Assembly (NCBI RefSeq): GCF_900100125.1
Contig: NZ_FNEL01000009.1
Span: forward strand, 6,753 to 30,752
Origin: Dolosicoccus paucivorans
Lineage (GTDB): Bacteria > Bacillota > Bacilli > Lactobacillales > Aerococcaceae
DNA length: 24,000 nt
Direction of reading: 5' to 3'
Below, piece after piece: positions 9,711 to 24,000 of this stretch. The first letter of the stretch is position 1; each line of letters starts with the position of its first letter. The position numbers and the translations under genes were made by a program. A model generated the notes under the pieces. That model did no database searches. It was given only the letters and a program-made list of their open reading frames with translations, and had not been told where the DNA came from.

Positions 9711-10265
9711 TTAATCTTTTGAAGAACCGAATCCACCTGTACGTTCTAATCGTCCACCTTCATCACCATCAGCTTTTAAAAATGGTAAAAAGATACCTTG
9801 AGCGATGCGTTCACCTTTTTCGATGATGCAGTCAAAAAGACCAAAGTTGATCAATTGAACATAAATGTGTCCTTCATTATTAGGGTTATTGTAATAATCC
9901 GCATCAATAATCCCTACGCCATTGGGAAGAGCTAAAAAGCGTTTCAAAGGATTGCTAGAACGATTAGTCAGTTGTAAATATTCATCATCTTGCATATAAG
10001 CTTTAATTCCTGTCGGAACAAGAGTAGGTTTTAATAGCCCTTTAACTGTTTCATCCGTCATCTCATCTGTTTCTTGAGGAGATTTCAAAATCCATTGTTT
10101 CAATTCTTTAGCTAAATATTTAAATACTTCTTTCCAATAAGAAGGTAACACAATGGTTTCTGCCGCTTCAAAATCATACCCTGCCGCATGAATTGTCGCC
10201 CGCTGAGGAATATTGATGGATTGATTTTCATATTCTTTTATGACTTCAAATCCACGTTTTTTCAT
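9711..10265 (-). CDS. dut: dUTP diphosphatase (trimeric dUTPase family, with internal insertion)
   Basis: 184-aa ORF in which all five dUTPase motifs are recognisable: AAGYDF, NRSS, GIIDADYY, GERIAQGIF and RTGGFGSS. AAAGGTGA precedes the ATG. It lies upstream of radA, as in many Lactobacillales. Confidence 0.85.
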   Translation of the reverse strand: MKKRGFEVIKEYENQSINIPQRATIHAAGYDFEAAETIVLPSYWKEVFKYLAKELKQWILKSPQETDEMTDETVKGLLKPTLVPTGIKAYMQDDEYLQLTNRSSNPLKRFLALPNGVGIIDADYYNNPNNEGHIYVQLINFGLFDCIIEKGERIAQGIFLPFLKADGDEGGRLERTGGFGSSKD

Positions 10266-13905: not shown

Positions 13906-13968
13906 AAAAAGACTCTAATAATGAACCCTTTTTTAGAAATTAACTGGATTCATTATTAGAGTTTTTTT
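13904..13968. terminator. bidirectional rho-independent terminator between convergent genes
   Basis: A 14-bp stem pairs ACTCTAATAATGAA (13912-13925) with TTCATTATTAGAGT (13949-13962), leaving a 23-nt loop. It is flanked by an A-run on the left and a T-run on the right, so either strand yields a hairpin followed by a U-tract. It sits between the CDF stop (13905) and the stop of the minus-strand HTH gene (13967). Confidence 0.7.
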
Positions 13969-14908
13969 ACTTCCAAAATTGCCACCATTTCTTAGAAGGC
14001 TTTGAATTCGCTGTTGAAGGTTGAGTGGACTCATTAGCGTTCGATTGAGATGAAAGATTGGTCTCTTGAGTGTTAGATGAGGGATGAGGGGAGGTATCCT
14101 TTTCTTCTTGTGAATCATCTACCTTTTCCTTGTGATCTTCTTTACTATCTTGAGCGTGACTCATGTTTGAATACTCTAGACGAAGTTGAATATTTTTTTG
14201 TTGTTCAATAAGAAGCAATTGTTGTTGCTGGTCTAATAATTTTGCCAGTCGATCAATATGCAAGTCTTTCTCGTAAAGTTGTTGTTCTAACAACTTAAAA
14301 TATTGCTCCATCGTTTGTGCTGGATCATCATCTTGATCCATATATTTACGAACATATGTTCGTATAAAGTCAGTCACATTCTCATTCATTTCTGGATCAA
14401 ACGTTTCTTTGTTCTCATCTTCTGTGTTTGACTTTTCTGTTTCATGAGTCTCTTTTTGCTCAGAGTCTTTGACTTCCTCTATAATAGTTTGATTTTCAAT
14501 CGCTTTGTCATCTTTTTTCCCTTGAGAAGTGTCTTCTTCTGCCACTTCTTTTAATTCATCTTTGTCATCGAGTTCAAAGGATAATTGTTCTGGTTTGTCT
14601 ATTTGAACAGTAACTTCTTTTACTTCGATGACAGCTTCTTGACTCTCAAGACTTTCTTTACTATCTTTGTCATCTTTTTCCACTTTTACATCTTGTAAAA
14701 CATCTTCAGATTCTTTTGACTCTTGTGTTTCATCGTCTTCAAGGGTCATAAAAGATTGAAGCTTCAACTGTTGTTCTGGTGTAAAAACAAGTCGATTTGT
14801 CTCATCGTATACTTTTTCATCTTCTTTAATTTTTTTGGCATGATAATAAATCAGTTGACGAGACACCCCTAATTCGTCAGCTAATTCTTGGACACTTAAA
14901 TTTTTCAT
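13967..14908 (-). CDS. hypothetical HTH protein with an acidic disordered region and a Q-rich coiled coil (DUF536-like, from memory)
   Basis: I prefer the ATG at 14908 (MKNLSVQELADELGVSRQLIYYHAKKI..., about 313 aa), with SD AAGGAG/GGGGTG upstream. The ORF-track start at 14995 would overlap the dnaB terminator and this gene's own promoter. The protein has an N-terminal HTH and about 150 aa of E/D/K-rich low complexity. These are followed by the coiled coil LAKLLDQQQQLLLIEQQKNIQL, an S/T/N/Q-rich tail, and a C-terminal KKWWQFWK. Confidence 0.75.
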   Translation of the reverse strand: MKNLSVQELADELGVSRQLIYYHAKKIKEDEKVYDETNRLVFTPEQQLKLQSFMTLEDDETQESKESEDVLQDVKVEKDDKDSKESLESQEAVIEVKEVTVQIDKPEQLSFELDDKDELKEVAEEDTSQGKKDDKAIENQTIIEEVKDSEQKETHETEKSNTEDENKETFDPEMNENVTDFIRTYVRKYMDQDDDPAQTMEQYFKLLEQQLYEKDLHIDRLAKLLDQQQQLLLIEQQKNIQLRLEYSNMSHAQDSKEDHKEKVDDSQEEKDTSPHPSSNTQETNLSSQSNANESTQPSTANSKPSKKWWQFWK

Positions 14909-14935
14909 GTAAAACACCCCGCTCCTTACTTTCTC

Positions 14936-15006: not shown

Positions 15007-16389
15007 TTAAAAAACAGGCGGCTCGGGTTGATATGAAAGATTAGAAAACTTATTGTATTCACGTTTGAATAATAAACGAACCGTGTCTCGCGGACCACTT
15101 CGGTTTTTAGCAATAATGACTTCAATGGTATTATCGCTCATTTCGTCATTGTCTGATACACTACTATCTTCTTCATCTTTTTGATGGTAGTCTTCGCGGT
15201 ATAAAAACGCCACAATATCTGCATCTTGTTCAATCGAACCTGACTCACGGATATCACTTAAAATAGGTCGTTTATTTTGACGCTGTTCTAAACTTCTTGA
15301 AAGTTGTGATAAGGCAATAACAGGAGTGTTTAACTCTTTAGCTAGCATTTTTAATTGTCTAGATATGTCGGATACTTGTTGTTGTCTACTTTCATGACCT
15401 GTTCCTTCAATTAATTGCAAATAGTCAATAACAATTAAACTTAAGTCAGGATGTTCTTGTTTTAATCGACGACATTTTGCTCTAATTTCAGAAACCTTTA
15501 AACCAGCCGTATCATCAATAAAAATTGAAGCTTCTTTTAAACGATCAACGGCGACAAAAAAGCTTTGCCATTCATCAGCAGTCAATTGCCCTGTTCGTAA
15601 GTTAGAAGCATGAATGCTTCCTTCCGCACAAATAATACGGTTAACTAAATCAATGGCACCCATTTCCAGAGAGAACAAAGCGACAGGTAATTTTGATTTA
15701 GTTGCGACGTTTTGAGCAATATTTAATGCAAAAGCTGTCTTACCAACAGAAGGTCTTGCTGCTAAAACAATAAGTTGATCGGGCTGAAATCCACTAGTTA
15801 TTTTGTCTAATTCAGTATACCCCGTTGGTACACCCGTCACGTCCCCCTTTTGTTTTGAACGTTCATGTACTAATTCGACGGCTTCATCAATTAAATATCT
15901 CATCTCTTGGAAACGCGTACTACTACTAGCTTCTCCAATTGACAAAATCATCTTTTGACTTTCATCTAAAATAGCTGATAGTTCGTTATTATCATTATGA
16001 GCGTCTTCAATGATCTTTTGGCTTGCTGCAATTAATTGTCTTAAAGTAGACTTTTCTTTAACAATTCCTGCGTACTGTTCCGCAAGATGGGAACTAGGAG
16101 TCATATCAATTAATTCAGCTAAGTAATCCGGTCCTCCTGCATTTTCCAATTCATCATAGGACTCTAGCTGGTTCACTACTGTTACATAATCAATCACACC
16201 ATTTTCACGGTTACTAATTGCGTCCATCGCATGAAAAATTAATTGGTGAGATCGTTTATAGAAATCTTGATCGGTGAGTTGTGATTGAACAACAGGTAGT
16301 TTTTTAGGATCGATTAAAATAGATCCTAAGACGGCTTGTTCAGATTCAAGACTATAAGGTACTTGATAATCTAAACGACTATTTTCCAT
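15007..16389 (-). CDS. dnaB: replicative DNA helicase (DnaB family; called DnaC in B. subtilis nomenclature)
   Basis: 460-aa ORF with the N-terminal SEQAVLGSILIDP motif, a Walker A motif (ARPSVGKTAFALN), Walker B (LIVIDYLQLI) and a RecA-like C-terminal domain. It lies downstream of rplI as in other Firmicutes. Confidence 0.97.
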   Translation of the reverse strand: MENSRLDYQVPYSLESEQAVLGSILIDPKKLPVVQSQLTDQDFYKRSHQLIFHAMDAISNRENGVIDYVTVVNQLESYDELENAGGPDYLAELIDMTPSSHLAEQYAGIVKEKSTLRQLIAASQKIIEDAHNDNNELSAILDESQKMILSIGEASSSTRFQEMRYLIDEAVELVHERSKQKGDVTGVPTGYTELDKITSGFQPDQLIVLAARPSVGKTAFALNIAQNVATKSKLPVALFSLEMGAIDLVNRIICAEGSIHASNLRTGQLTADEWQSFFVAVDRLKEASIFIDDTAGLKVSEIRAKCRRLKQEHPDLSLIVIDYLQLIEGTGHESRQQQVSDISRQLKMLAKELNTPVIALSQLSRSLEQRQNKRPILSDIRESGSIEQDADIVAFLYREDYHQKDEEDSSVSDNDEMSDNTIEVIIAKNRSGPRDTVRLLFKREYNKFSNLSYQPEPPVF

Positions 16390-16453: not shown

Positions 16454-16906
16454 TTATTGTTCAACGACATGTACGCGAATTTTGGCTGGAACGTCTGAAT
16501 GTAAGCTAATATCTACGTTGTGGTAGCCTAAGGAAGCTAAATTTTGTTTCATGTGCATCTTACGTCGATCCACTTTAATTTTAAACTGTTTTTGTAAAGC
16601 CTCAGCTACTTGCTTAGGTGTAACTGTTCCGAAAAGACGACCGTCTTCACCAGCTTTTGCTTTAATTTCCACAACCGTTGATTCTTTATCAAGTTCTTTT
16701 TTAATTTCTTTTGCTTGTTCAAGCTCTTCTAGTTCGCGTTCTTTATTAGCTTTTTCTTTAGCCTTTAGTTGATTTAAAGCAGCAGGGGTCGCTTCTTTAG
16801 CTAAACCATTTTTAATTAAATAGTTTTGACCGTAACCTGCTGCTACCTCAATCACATCACCTTTTTTACCTTGTTTTCTAACATCTTGTAATAAAATAAC
16901 TTTCAT
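16454..16906 (-). CDS. rplI: 50S ribosomal protein L9
   Basis: 150-aa ORF. MKVILLQDVRKQGKKGDVIEVAAGYGQNYL is the canonical L9 N-terminal domain. The start lies 10 nt after the gdpP stop. Confidence 0.97.
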   Translation of the reverse strand: MKVILLQDVRKQGKKGDVIEVAAGYGQNYLIKNGLAKEATPAALNQLKAKEKANKERELEELEQAKEIKKELDKESTVVEIKAKAGEDGRLFGTVTPKQVAEALQKQFKIKVDRRKMHMKQNLASLGYHNVDISLHSDVPAKIRVHVVEQ

Positions 16907-16916
16907 AGTGACCTCC

Positions 16917-18821
16917 TTAAATTTCTTCTTGTTCTTTTAATACGTCAATGAGTGCTTGATAAGCTTCTTCAACACTAACATCACTCATTTGAGTCGCGGC
17001 GTTGGATAAATGTCCTCCACCACCTAATTTCTCCATTGTTGTTTGAACGTTAATCGTTCCTAAACTACGAGCACTAATGCCTACCGACGTGTCTGAACGG
17101 CGGTAAATAACAAATGATGCTTCCACATCTGTTAAAGACAACATTAAGTCGGCTGTTTGAGCTGCCACGATATTGTCATAAATCTCATCATCTGGTGCTA
17201 CGCTGACGGCTTTCCCTTTACCTAAGTACTCTGTTTGTTCGATTAAGTCATTTCGTACTTTTATGAAGGAGAGATCTTCCTTTAGCATACGTTGAATTTG
17301 AGTCGTATCAGCGCCTCTAGATTTCAAATAGCTCGCTGCATCAAATGTACGCGATCCGGTTCTTAAAGTAAAGTTATTCGTATCAACAATAATTCCTGCT
17401 AATAATGCAGTAGCTTCAAATTTGTTTAACACGTTTGTCGTGTTACGTTCATTACTGAAAAATTCTGTCACCAGCTCTGAGGTTGATGACGCATACGGCT
17501 CAATATAAGTTAATACCGTTTGACTTGGGAACTCTTCGCTACGACGATGGTGATCAATAATTACTACATCATGGCCTTCTAATAGGTCTTGAGCTTCACT
17601 TAAAGAAGGACGATGATGGTCTACTAAAATCACTAACGTTCGGTCTGTCATAAACTCTTTTGCTTCTTCATGGGTCACAAAGTACTGAGCCCAGTTCTTT
17701 TGTACTATAGGAGAAGCCACTAAATGCATAATATCATTATTAAATTCAGCTTCATTGACAACCACTCGAGCGGGCTTTTTCATCTGTGTAACGATCTTAT
17801 GAATTCCTAAAGCAGCTCCCATTGAATCCATATCTGGTATCTTATGGCCACTGATCAACACTTGATCAGCTTGTTCAATGGAGTTAAGCAGTGCTTGATA
17901 AACAAGTTTTGAACGAATACTTGTTCTTCTTTCGGAAGGATTGGTTTTTCCACCGTAAAAACGAGCTTTATCGTCTTTAGCGCGAACAACGACTTGATCT
18001 CCACCACGTCCTAAAGCTAAATCTAAGTTTAAAGAGGCTTGCTTAGCCAGTTCATCAATCGAATACTCATCACTTGAAGGATAGGCAATCCCTAAACTAA
18101 TTGAAATAGGAACGTTTCTTGCGTCACTTGACTCACGAATTTGATTAATATGAATGAACTTTTCATCTTCTAGTTGTTTTAGCGTTTTTAAATTAAATAA
18201 TAAAATAAAGCGTTCATCATCGATTCGTTTAATATAAATTTGACGCGCTTTGGTCCAGTTATTTAACTCTGAAATTAAGTCTGATTCATATCTAGCTGCT
18301 TGTTGATCATCCATAGATTCAATAATTTCGTTGTAGTCGTCTAGATATAAGTAACCGAACACTAATTGATCATATTTTCTTTTTTCGATAACGTCTTGTT
18401 CAATCGTAAAGTCGATTAAATAAAATGCTTGTTTTTCTGGATTATGTAATACGCGGTAGTAACGATCTTTAAAGAAGATTAAATGCCATCTTTTATCTGT
18501 AGGTATATCTAAAATATCATGAATATGTTCATCTAAGTTTGCTAGCAGTTCTCCCAATAAATTCTGCTGACCAAAGATTTGCTGTAAACTAGGGTTAACC
18601 CACTTCACACGGTACTCCTGGTCATATAGTAACACCGCAATTGGCGAACGATACAGGGAGTCTTCTTCAGCTGCCTGGACATCCTCAGTCAACTTAGAAG
18701 CTAAAGCATTAAACTCTTCCAAAAAGCCATTGACGTTAACAACAAAGATCGCTACAAAGGCGATAACTAAAATCAACATCAATAAACCTATTTGCCACTT
18801 CCAAAAGAAAGCAATCAACAT
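16917..18821 (-). CDS. gdpP: cyclic-di-AMP phosphodiesterase GdpP (DHH/DHHA1 with degenerate GGDEF)
   Basis: The coordinates give the ORF from its first canonical ATG (634 aa). A PAS-like region, a degenerate GGDEF region, DHH motifs (ISGHKIPDMDS, VDHHR, IDHHRRS) and DHHA1 (GGGGH) are present. The true start is probably upstream at about 18914-18917 on a non-ATG codon (see findings). Confidence 0.93.
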   Translation of the reverse strand: MLIAFFWKWQIGLLMLILVIAFVAIFVVNVNGFLEEFNALASKLTEDVQAAEEDSLYRSPIAVLLYDQEYRVKWVNPSLQQIFGQQNLLGELLANLDEHIHDILDIPTDKRWHLIFFKDRYYRVLHNPEKQAFYLIDFTIEQDVIEKRKYDQLVFGYLYLDDYNEIIESMDDQQAARYESDLISELNNWTKARQIYIKRIDDERFILLFNLKTLKQLEDEKFIHINQIRESSDARNVPISISLGIAYPSSDEYSIDELAKQASLNLDLALGRGGDQVVVRAKDDKARFYGGKTNPSERRTSIRSKLVYQALLNSIEQADQVLISGHKIPDMDSMGAALGIHKIVTQMKKPARVVVNEAEFNNDIMHLVASPIVQKNWAQYFVTHEEAKEFMTDRTLVILVDHHRPSLSEAQDLLEGHDVVIIDHHRRSEEFPSQTVLTYIEPYASSTSELVTEFFSNERNTTNVLNKFEATALLAGIIVDTNNFTLRTGSRTFDAASYLKSRGADTTQIQRMLKEDLSFIKVRNDLIEQTEYLGKGKAVSVAPDDEIYDNIVAAQTADLMLSLTDVEASFVIYRRSDTSVGISARSLGTINVQTTMEKLGGGGHLSNAATQMSDVSVEEAYQALIDVLKEQEEI

Positions 18822-18946
18822 AACAAGTAAGTAAAACGCTGCTAAACTATATACTTGAAAGCTAACGTTTAACGTATTGAATAAATGAAAAAATCGTTTT
18901 ATATTTTTAAAAATGATGATAAATCACCTCTTTTTCTATTTCTTCT

Positions 18947-18975: not shown

Positions 18976-18988
18976 AAGTTCTCTTCAT

Positions 18989-19004
18989 TGTTTCACGTGA
19001 AACA
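18989..19004. other. parS: parS site (ParB/Spo0J binding site), perfect consensus
   Basis: TGTTTCACGTGAAACA is an exact match to the Firmicute parS consensus TGTTNCACGTGAAACA. The palindrome extends to 18 bp (TTGTTTCACGTGAAACAA, 18988-19005). It is intergenic, between the rpsR terminator and the gdpP promoter, in origin-proximal gene context. Confidence 0.85.
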
Positions 19005-19041
19005 AAACAAAAAGGATTGAAGGAATCTCCCTTCAATCCTT
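19000..19041 (-). terminator. rho-independent terminator after rpsR
   Basis: A perfect 12-bp stem, AAGGATTGAAGG / CCTTCAATCCTT (19012-19023 and 19030-19041), closes a 6-nt loop. On the minus strand it is followed by TTTGTTTTGTTT. It starts 6 nt after the rpsR stop. Confidence 0.85.
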
Positions 19042-19047
19042 GAATAA

Positions 19048-19281
19048 TTAGTCTTGTGCTACGAATGGTAATAGTGCCATAATACGAGCACGTTTTAATG
19101 ATACTGTTAATGCACGTTGGTGTTTCGCACATGTTCCTGTTACACGACGTGGTAAGATTTTACCTTTATCAGAAACAAAACGTTTCAATAATTCAGTGTC
19201 TTTGTAATCAGGATGATCAATATGGTTTGCACAGAAGTAACATACGCGTCTTCTGCGACGACCTCCACGACGGAATGCCAT
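19048..19281 (-). CDS. rpsR: 30S ribosomal protein S18
   Basis: 77-aa ORF. The sequence [17 protein letters not shown]...DYKD...LKRF..ILPRR.TG.CAKHQR is canonical S18. The SD AGGAGGAAA lies upstream. Confidence 0.97.
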
Positions 19282-19303
19282 ATTCGTTTCCTCCTATCTT
19301 TTT

Positions 19304-19795
19304 TTAGAACGGTAAGTCATCTTCAGAAACATCTACTGTTTCTCCTTCATTTAAGAAAGGCGATGACTGACTAAAATCATTGTTAAAATCGAAATTGTTT
19401 GACGTGTTTTGATTGCTCTCAAAGTGATTATTGGAAAAATCTGGAGTAGAACTTTCAGCTGGACGTTGTTCCGTTACTGATTTTGGTTCGAGGAAGAAAA
19501 ATTGTTCCACGACAACTTCTGTAACGTACACGCGTTGTCCTTGATTGTTATCATAACTTCTCGTTTGAATTCGACCTTGAACACCGATCTGAGATCCTTT
19601 ACGAGTAAAGTTAGCTAAAGTTTCAGCCTGTTGTCTCCAAATAACACATTGAATAAAATCTGCTTCACGTTCACCTTGTTGGTTTTTGAAATTTCGGTTA
19701 ACAGCTAGTGTAAAGTTACCTACGGCTGTACCTGAAGAAGTATAGCGTAAGTCAACATCTTTTGTTAGTCGACCGACGAGTTGGACAGAGTTCAA
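19304..19795 (-). CDS. ssb: single-stranded DNA-binding protein
   Basis: 163-aa ORF with a TTG start and AAGGAGGA 8 nt upstream. It has an OB fold (VQLVGRLTKDVDLRYTSSGTAVGNFTLAVNR), an N/Q/S-rich linker and the conserved acidic tip DDLPF. Confidence 0.96.
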   Translation of the reverse strand: MNSVQLVGRLTKDVDLRYTSSGTAVGNFTLAVNRNFKNQQGEREADFIQCVIWRQQAETLANFTRKGSQIGVQGRIQTRSYDNNQGQRVYVTEVVVEQFFFLEPKSVTEQRPAESSTPDFSNNHFESNQNTSNNFDFNNDFSQSSPFLNEGETVDVSEDDLPF

Positions 19796-19815
19796 GACAT
19801 CTTCCTCCTTCGAAG

Positions 19816-19831
19816 TGTTTCACGTGAAACA
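19816..19831. other. parS: parS site (ParB/Spo0J binding site), perfect consensus
   Basis: This is the second exact copy of TGTTTCACGTGAAACA. It lies inside the 39-nt rpsF-ssb intercistronic spacer, 4 nt after the rpsF stop and 5 nt before the ssb SD. Confidence 0.85.
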
Positions 19832-19834
19832 TTA

Positions 19835-20131
19835 TTAATCTTCTTGCTTAGTAATCATGAAACGTAAGATATCACGGCTATAGTTAGCTAAACGAGTGAA
19901 CTCGTTTAAACCTTCTTCGCTCGCAGTCTCAAAAGTCATAATATGGTAAAGACCTTCTTTGTAATCTTTGATTTCATAAGCTAAGCGTCTTTTTTCCCAT
20001 TCTTTTGATTCTAGATTTTCCGCTCCACTATTCGCAATAATCGCATCAAAACGTTCTACTAACGCTTTTCGATCATCTTCACCTAAGTCAGGGCGAATAA
20101 TATATAGGATTTCATATTTTCTAGTTTGCAT
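19835..20131 (-). CDS. rpsF: 30S ribosomal protein S6
   Basis: 98-aa ORF. MQTRKYEILYIIRPDL...RRLAYEI is canonical S6. The SD AAAGGAGGTG lies 9 nt upstream. Confidence 0.97.
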   Translation of the reverse strand: MQTRKYEILYIIRPDLGEDDRKALVERFDAIIANSGAENLESKEWEKRRLAYEIKDYKEGLYHIMTFETASEEGLNEFTRLANYSRDILRFMITKQED

Positions 20132-20295: not shown

Positions 20296-22803
20296 TTATT
20301 CTTCGTCCTCTAAGACAGTTTCTTCCTCTACAGTCTCTTCTTCGTCGGTTTTAATAATTTTAACGATCGAACTGACTGCAGCACCTTCATCAATTCGAAT
20401 GACTCGAACGCCTAAAGTGGCACGAGATGTTTGCGAAATAGTATCAATTTCAATTCGAATAACAACTCCGTGATCTGTCATAATGAGGAGATCTTCTTGA
20501 ACAGCATCATCGCCTTTACGGTCTGTTACTACTAAACCAGCTAATTTACCGCTCTTTTGGCCGATATTAGCTGTTTTGACTCCTTTACCGCCTCGGTTTC
20601 TTGGGGCATATTCTTGGGCAGATGTACGTTTACCATACCCTTTTTCAGTAACCACTAAAACATTACTATCTTCGGTTAATACATCAGCTCCTACGACATA
20701 ATCACCAGATCGAAGATTGACTCCGCGAACGCCTGTTGCTGTTCTTCCCATAACACGAACATCTTCTTCATTAAAGGTCATCGCATAACCGTCTCGTGTT
20801 CCAATAATAATGTTTTGGTGACCTTGGGTGGTCAATACTTTGATTAACTCATCATCTTCGCGCATATTAATCGCAATTAACCCGTTATTACGAATATTTT
20901 GATACTCTTCAGTTAAAGAACGCTTAACGGTTCCTTGTTGAGTAACAAAGAATAGATGCTTCTTATTACTATCGCGAGGAATCGCAATCACTTCTTTAAC
21001 GTGTTCTTCTTTTTCGATATTTAGTAAGTTAACAATAGGAATCCCTCTAGCTGAACGTCCATATTCCGGAATGTCATAGCCTTTTGTTTGGTAAACTTTC
21101 CCTTTATTTGTAAAGAATAAAATATCATCATGAGTTGAAGCAACAACTAAGGAATGCAAGCTATCCTCTTCGCCCATTCCCATCCCTTTAACACCGCGAC
21201 CTCCGCGATTTTGAACTTGGAATTCATCTTCTTTCATTCGCTTAATATAACCATTTGTCGTTAAAGCGATTAAGATTTCTTCTTCTTCAATTAAATCTTC
21301 GTCTTCAATGCTTAATAATTCACCGACCCGTAACTCTGTACGTCGTTCGTCATTAAAGCGTTGGTTAATATCATTTAATTCGTCTTCAATAATGTCATAG
21401 ACGCGTTGTTTGCTGGCTAAAATCTCTGCTAAACGGCGAATGAGTTCAAGTAAGTTATTGTACTCTGTTTCTAGTTTCTCACGCTCTAAGCCCGTTAAAC
21501 GAACCATACGCATATCTAAAATTGCTTGAGCTTGAATGTCTGTAAAGGCAAATTGCTCAATTAAACGACCTTTAGCTGTTTCACCATCTTTAGAGCTACG
21601 TAAAATATCAATAATTTCATCAATAACGTCTAGCGCTTTTAAGAGTCCTTGTAAAATATGAGCACGATCTTCTGCTCGTTTCTTTTCAAAAGCAGTACGG
21701 CGTTGAATCACTTCAACTTGATGGTCTAAATACTTTTGTAATATTTCCGTCAAGTTTAAAATCTTCGGTACGCCACCATCGATAGCTAACATATTGTAAC
21801 TAAAACTTACTTGCAGTGGTGTTGATTTGTAAAGGTTATTTAAAATGACACTTGCACTTGCATCCCGTCTAACTTCAATGACAATTCGCATTCCTTCACG
21901 ACCCGACTCATCCGCAACGTAAGTAATTCCGTCGACGCGTTTTTCACGAGCGAGTTCGGCAATTCGTTCCACAAGTCTTGCTTTATTTACACCGTAAGGT
22001 ATTTCTGTGACAACAATTCGCTCGCGGTCACGATTAAATTGCTCTATTTCGACCCGACTACGGATAATGATGCGGCCTCTACCCGTTTGATAAGCTTGAC
22101 GAATGCCTGATTTACCCATAACGATACCACCCGTTGGAAAGTCAGGACCAGGTAAGACGTCCATTAGTTCATTTAACGTAACGTCTGGATTTTTCATTAA
22201 TAAAATTAACGCTTCAATAACTTCCCCTAAGTTGTGAGGGGGAATGTTAGTTGCCATCCCTACCGCAATCCCTGATGTTCCATTAACTAAAAGGTTTGGA
22301 AAACGTGCCGGTAATACAACAGGTTCTTTTTCTTCTTGTGAGTAGTTATCTTGAAAGTCAATTGTGTCTTTATTGATATCTTTTAACATCTCTAAAGCAA
22401 TACGGCTCATTCGAGCTTCTGTATAACGCATTGCTGCAGCGCCGTCGCCGTCAATGGAACCAAAGTTTCCGTGACCATCAACAAGCATTTGGCGATAGCT
22501 AAAGGGTTGAGCCATACGGACCATCGCTTCATAAATCGCACTATCACCGTGAGGGTGATACTTACCCATAACGTCTCCGACAATACGGGCAGATTTTTTA
22601 TATGGTTTGTCAGGAGTTACACCTAGTTCATTCATTCCATAAAGAATTCTTCGATGCACTGGCTTTAATCCATCTCTTACATCAGGTAAAGCCCTTGAGA
22701 CGATGACACTCATCGCATAGTCCAAGAAGGACGTTCTCATTTCATCAGGTAGGCTTATTTTCTCATAGTTACGTGGTTCATCTACATCAAACAAGTCACT
22801 CAT
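20296..22803 (-). CDS. gyrA: DNA gyrase subunit A
   Basis: 835-aa ORF. The active-site region contains AMRYTE. The QRDR reads [14 protein letters not shown]. The C-terminal beta-pinwheel repeats and an acidic tail ([15 protein letters not shown]) are present. Confidence 0.98.

Positions 22804-22820: not shown

Positions 22821-24000
<1,180 letters not shown>

Follow-up and report, generated by a model that had tools for sequence, protein, structure and literature searches.

Chromosomal parS sites share the general consensus TGTTNCACGTGAAACA (PMC7022226). In Bacillus subtilis (PMC4536313), eight of the ten known sites fall between -27 and +42 degrees, and the other two are distal. In Streptococcus pneumoniae D39, where the parS consensus is tGTTTCACGtGAAACa, ChIP revealed ParB binding, recruitment of SMC and spreading over >5 kb (PMC4488948). 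The Noc-binding sites (NBS; ATTTCCCGGGAAAT) of Firmicutes resemble parS in being palindromes of 14-16 bp that are bound by the helix-turn-helix domain of a ParB-family protein, and the two kinds of site have a related half-site architecture (PMC7383237). Two positions of the protein bear on the distinction: the Arg of the GKSR position (R173 in Caulobacter numbering) tells ParB from Noc, and Caulobacter G201 contacts parS and is reported to be invariant in ParB (Jalal et al. 2020, PMC7383237).

We analysed a 24-kb stretch of Dolosicoccus paucivorans DNA (hereafter the window, to which positions refer unless another locus is named). Exact matching of four proteins encoded in the window pointed to this species, a member of the family Aerococcaceae in the order Lactobacillales. 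A motif search identified two exact copies of the 16-mer TGTTTCACGTGAAACA in the window, at 18989-19004 and 19816-19831, separated by 827 bp from start to start. Both copies match the general chromosomal parS consensus at 16 of 16 positions. The copies and the features surrounding them are as follows:

22821-23825, minus strand, gyrB, C-terminal part (NCBIfam)
20296-22803, minus strand, gyrA (NCBIfam)
19835-20131, minus strand, rpsF (ribosomal protein S6), first in the operon (TIGR00166, 81.8 bits; cut-off, 42.9)
19816-19831, no strand, putative parS site A (TGTTTCACGTGAAACA), perfectly palindromic over its 16 bp
19304-19795, minus strand, ssb (single-stranded DNA-binding protein; TIGR00621, 147 bits; cut-off, 54)
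19048-19281, minus strand, rpsR (ribosomal protein S18), last in the operon (TIGR00165, 117.8 bits; cut-off, 38.75)
19012-19041, minus strand, intrinsic terminator of the rpsF-ssb-rpsR operon, an inverted repeat with a 12-13 bp stem
18989-19004, no strand, putative parS site B, the identical 16-mer, within an 18-bp palindrome at 18988-19005
16917-18821 or longer, minus strand, gdpP, GdpP-type c-di-AMP phosphodiesterase (NCBIfam)
16454-16906, minus strand, rplI (NCBIfam)
15007-16389, minus strand, dnaB (NCBIfam)
14901-14916, minus strand, degenerate parS-like sequence TGTTTTACATGAAAAA with three mismatches, just past dnaB

The chance expectation for an exact 16-mer is ~1e-5 per 24 kb, counting both strands. 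Allowing up to three mismatches, we found three matches in the window, compared with 0.25 expected, and three or more were reached in none of 100 dinucleotide-preserving shuffles of the window. The hexamer CACGTG occurs twice, each time within a 16-mer, against an expectation of 3.1; this number is unremarkable, and depletion of the hexamer by a restriction-site effect was rejected on the same counts. At site B, a T at 18988 and an A at 19005 lengthen the palindrome to 18 bp. This extension is missing from relatives and appears to be incidental, originating in the T-run of the adjoining terminator. These searches bear out a preliminary description of the window, which had reported two perfect 16-bp parS copies 827 bp apart that match the B. 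subtilis-type consensus exactly, the first of them within a perfect 18-bp palindrome, and only two CACGTG hexamers in the 24 kb.

Genes in this part of the window all lie on the minus strand and follow one another along the direction of transcription in the order gyrB (C-terminal part), gyrA, rpsF, ssb, rpsR, gdpP, rplI and dnaB. The coordinates of rpsF and ssb place site A within the 39-nt spacer between these genes, where it forms part of the operon transcript, 3 nt past the rpsF stop codon and 6 nt ahead of the ssb Shine-Dalgarno sequence (GGAGG). Site B is found directly past the T-run of the strong rpsR terminator and upstream of the gdpP promoter region. Together, the two sites bracket ssb-rpsR, one in the rpsF-ssb spacer and the other 3' of the rpsR terminator, and thus occupy intergenic spacers as had been described.

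Two further genes of the window deserve mention. The first is gdpP, which probably starts at a non-canonical Ile codon (18912-18931, minus strand). An N-terminal segment that lies in frame upstream of the first ATG is kept in Falseniella, WGS1372 and Eremococcus, and in Falseniella and WGS1372 it comes after an ATG. Between the in-frame stop and this segment, the window has no ATG, GTG or TTG; the only candidate start codons are ATC ATC ATT (18920-18912), which begin 3-9 nt past a Shine-Dalgarno sequence, AGAGGTGA (18931-18924). Gene callers give lengths of 591, 620 or 634 aa, varying with the assembly. The second is the dut ORF (9711-10265, minus strand), which encodes 184 aa. Models of dUTPase align mainly to its residues 80-182, in two stretches. 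This pattern suggests that, compared with a typical ~145-aa dUTPase, the protein is extended at its N-terminus or carries an insertion.

We located the window relative to the replication origin using contig JBSMXU010000024.1 (assembly GCA_053760725.1), which includes the window and carries the gene order dnaA-dnaN-S4-recF-gyrB-gyrA-rpsF, with DnaA-box-like sequences upstream of dnaA. On this single contig, 9.1 kb separate site A from the start of dnaA, and 10.0 kb separate site B from it, in line with the earlier estimate that the window lies within ~10 kb of oriC. When we searched the origin region of D. paucivorans over ~57 kb (34 kb right of oriC, 22 kb left of it and the rnpA region), exactly two parS sites were returned at ≤2 mismatches. 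At the same threshold, no parS site was detected in or near parB or in the 22-kb left flank of oriC, in D. paucivorans or its sister species (loci L061, L060, L052 and L056). As A and B are the only two sites in these ~57 kb, the pair may constitute the principal origin-proximal centromere of D. paucivorans.

Two observations concern the origin region itself. In this strain, an IS-like element interrupts the rpmH-dnaA intergenic region ~400 bp upstream of dnaA (L001:1-201, on the contig that includes the window but outside the window itself). The insertion lies near or inside the DnaA-box region of oriC; the contig ends within the element, whose transposase has the N-terminus MKSIITEEMRYRQKVVEYAEKYDNNAKAARRY, and homology to strain PNFY (L045) starts only at L001:202. 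On the other side of the origin, the PTS EIIB/EIIC gene adjoining jag is broken into several short ORFs in two Logan contigs from D. paucivorans-like strains (L052:8793-10354 and L053:8595-10155). The EIIC gene was called intact in strain PNHE (455 aa; L060:1703-3070) and was uncalled in the window's own assembly (L061). The split gene may be a pseudogene or reflect an assembly frameshift.

We examined conservation of the two sites by scanning species-representative genomes with Ssb, which yielded four syntenic Aerococcaceae loci, from an Eremococcus MAG, Falseniella ignava, Aerococcaceae bacterium WGS1372 and a Facklamia MAG, with proteins 54-83% identical to those of the window. Site A is present at the same position, with 16 of 16 bases matching, in Eremococcus, Falseniella, WGS1372, the Facklamia MAG and Facklamia sp. 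P12945, making six lineages with Dolosicoccus. Site B is likewise perfect and located past the rpsR terminator in all three loci that reach far enough (Eremococcus, Falseniella and WGS1372), making four lineages with Dolosicoccus. When the loci were anchored on the sites, mean pairwise identity was 1.00 within the 16-mer for both, and the two flanks gave 0.40 and 0.39 for site A (six lineages) and 0.38 and 0.30 for site B (four lineages). Within the species, both sites are perfect in every retrieved D. paucivorans contig that spans both positions, from other assemblies and from metagenomes; two shorter contigs reach site A alone, and it is perfect in these too. An invariant 16-mer between diverged flanks is the signature expected if purifying selection acts on it in a sequence-specific manner, as on a protein-binding site. 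The comparison also shows the position of the putative parS pair to be fixed across the family Aerococcaceae, judging from the six lineages that share site A and the four that share site B. Outside the family, no parS was found at rpsF-ssb-rpsR in Streptococcus (locus L005), and the Granulicatella locus retrieved stops 4 nt into rpsF.

The degenerate sequence at 14901-14916 has a perfect counterpart in two of these relatives: Falseniella (L003:14893) and WGS1372 (L032:15226) carry a third exact parS just past dnaB. In the window, the sequence overlaps the ATG of a helix-turn-helix ORF (13967-14908) that is without counterpart in Falseniella and WGS1372. The sequence is probably a parS relic that has decayed or been overwritten, and we left it out of the count of functional sites.

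The preliminary description had proposed looking for a ParB homologue in the genome, and one was found in assembly GCA_053760725.1. An initial tblastn search of 44 loci with a B. subtilis Spo0J sequence identified no parB beside ssb in Aerococcaceae, because the gene lies across oriC. In Facklamia, the locus found via RnpA carries rsmG-parA-parB-DUF951 ~9 kb left of rnpA. A search with the Facklamia ParB returned 120 Aerococcaceae ParB clusters, with 66-97% identity across Facklamia, Fundicoccus, Suicoccus, Globicatella, Ignavigranum, Hutsoniella, Vaginisenegalia and Eremococcus; the D. paucivorans protein was not among them. We reached its gene by a stepwise route, from the RnpA of a sister species to the MnmG of that species, then to the D. 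paucivorans MnmG and its contig. This contig, JBSMXU010000027.1, has the gene order yidC-jag-...-mnmE-mnmG-...-rsmG-parA-parB-DUF951-ychF, with parA encoding 253 aa and parB 294 aa. Both genes are ~15-16 kb left of oriC, on the other side from sites A and B, and no noc paralogue was found between rsmG and parA.

The D. paucivorans ParB contains ParB_N, HTH_ParB and ParB_C domains and the motifs GERRxRA and ENLQRE. It scores 194 bits on TIGR00180 (cut-off, 58), falls below the cut-off of the Noc model (239 against 315) and aligns with the B. subtilis Spo0J structure 6SDK at E = 6e-75. It also has the parS-type Arg in GKSR. On the basis of these features, the protein is predicted to be a canonical chromosomal ParB of the Spo0J type. 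One residue is out of the ordinary. The equivalent of Caulobacter G201 is Ala185 (LSMAQGR; parB at L061:15350-16234), while the 120 other Aerococcaceae ParBs have Gly there (LSMGQAR or LTMGHAR), as does B. subtilis (LSMGHGR). The Ala also differs from the Arg of Noc-type proteins. It is the same in three assemblies, and thus no sequencing error. We counted this substitution against the parS reading, and it is one of two points of modest interest in the system.

Taken together, the consensus match, the presence of ParA and ParB in the assembly, the proximity to oriC and the syntenic conservation lead us to conclude that the two 16-mers are very probably chromosomal parS centromere sites of D. 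paucivorans and targets of its Spo0J-type ParB. The same four lines of evidence favour the original proposal that the palindrome is a protein-binding DNA site, namely parS.

Extrapolating from B. subtilis, Caulobacter and the pneumococcus, we expect the helix-turn-helix domains of ParB dimers to bind each palindrome. The dimers would then close into sliding clamps that depend on CTP and spread over several kb of neighbouring DNA. Such spreading would take in ssb and gdpP and might extend towards gyrA. Because they are just 827 bp apart, sites A and B would act as one nucleation and loading zone ~9-10 kb right of dnaA/oriC. As in B. subtilis and S. pneumoniae, SMC condensin would be loaded by the complex of ParB with DNA. 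Since the genome also has ParA/Soj, the complex would further be expected to interact with ParA and stimulate it, separating newly replicated sister origins.

We weighed three other explanations. The palindrome could be the operator of some other dimeric transcription factor controlling ssb-rpsR, gdpP or both, with the parS match coincidental or secondary. The setting of the sites would suit an operator: a gap of 6 nt separates site A from the ssb Shine-Dalgarno sequence downstream, site B precedes the gdpP promoter region, and their position with respect to the genes is unchanged in all relatives. However, ParB is the only known binder of the motif matched here at 16 of 16 positions, and it is encoded in this genome; in relatives, a third identical copy stands in the unrelated gene context past dnaB; site A is within the operon rather than at a promoter; and no candidate regulator is evident nearby. 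We therefore regard a different operator as very unlikely.

It is also highly improbable that the sites are chance occurrences or disused, non-functional parS relics. The parS-like sequence at 14901-14916 does look decayed, which indicates that this lineage can lose parS sites. However, two exact 16-mers are present where ~1e-5 would be expected per window, both are perfect across genera despite diverged flanks and in the D. paucivorans contigs retrieved, and the parA-parB operon has been kept intact.

We give next to no credence to the notion that site A is an RNA hairpin in the rpsF-ssb-rpsR mRNA, tuning ssb translation or serving in mRNA processing, with site B a part of the terminator: site A is indeed part of the transcript and directly precedes the ssb Shine-Dalgarno sequence in six of six lineages, and site B starts in the terminator T-run in three of four, but the stem is weak, as previously judged (6 bp, centroid -4.5 kcal/mol, context z-score 0.27), 121 of 200 shuffles fold as well as the site A context, there is no Rfam match, the 16-mer is invariant without covariation, which indicates sequence-specific rather than structure-specific selection, and the same 16-mer occurs past terminators and past dnaB, where such an RNA role is inapplicable. 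Rfam (gathering thresholds) and tRNA scans of the whole window found nothing, so no known RNA element explains the sites.

Accepting the two 16-mers as probable parS sites, we considered whether their placement has a meaning of its own. In six Aerococcaceae lineages, site A is set between the rpsF stop codon and the ssb Shine-Dalgarno sequence, within a few nucleotides of each. A family-wide parS in a highly expressed ribosomal-protein/ssb operon is the other point of modest interest. The stronger claim, that the pair is a centromere fixed family-wide in the rpsF-ssb-rpsR operon whose position may itself be under selection, we consider unlikely. Under this reading, ParB clamps that load or stall at the site might modulate expression of ssb or of the downstream gdpP, coupling origin segregation to replication and the handling of single-stranded DNA, in a manner akin to the effect that ParB has on comCDE in S. 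pneumoniae. Alternatively, heavy transcription of the operon might help to load ParB and SMC, or push them off the site. Site A, being transcribed and near the ssb Shine-Dalgarno sequence, may also have an additional RNA-level or regulatory role. The locus offers a natural test of whether a parS in a highly expressed operon affects the expression of ssb or gdpP.

Judged from sequence, sites A and B would be unannotated, functionally important elements and probably form the main centromere of a little-studied Lactobacillales genome. They mark the place where ParB and SMC would be expected to load, which is useful for interpreting Hi-C and ChIP data and for origin annotation. They are a new instance of a well-known element and no new kind of system, and they leave existing knowledge of ParABS systems unchanged.

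Among described systems, that of S. pneumoniae has a 16-bp sequence identical to the D. paucivorans sites (Minnen et al. 2011; Attaiech et al. 2015, PMC4488948). Both species belong to the Lactobacillales and have a handful of parS sites within a few degrees of oriC. The two systems differ in that S. pneumoniae is without ParA (PMC7333895), whereas D. paucivorans has parA-parB. They differ in placement too, the pneumococcal parS(-1.6 deg) being inside a coding gene and both Dolosicoccus sites being intergenic and bracketing ssb-rpsR. Furthermore, ParB binding and its spreading into neighbouring genes are ChIP-verified in S. pneumoniae and predicted for Dolosicoccus.

With B. subtilis, D. paucivorans shares the consensus TGTTNCACGTGAAACA, a closely related ParB (that of structure 6SDK) and a Soj/ParA partner. 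The sites are near the origin in both species, and by analogy similar roles in SMC loading and origin segregation would be expected. The spo0J gene of B. subtilis itself contains a parS site; in D. paucivorans, by contrast, none was found (≤2 mismatches) inside parB, close to it or elsewhere in the 22-kb left flank of oriC. In B. subtilis, the Noc paralogue is encoded beside soj, whereas in D. paucivorans rsmG is followed directly by parA. Finally, in comparison with the Noc system, the D. paucivorans sites have the sequence of parS and not of NBS, and the ParB predicted to bind them carries the Arg of GKSR rather than the Noc-type Gln.
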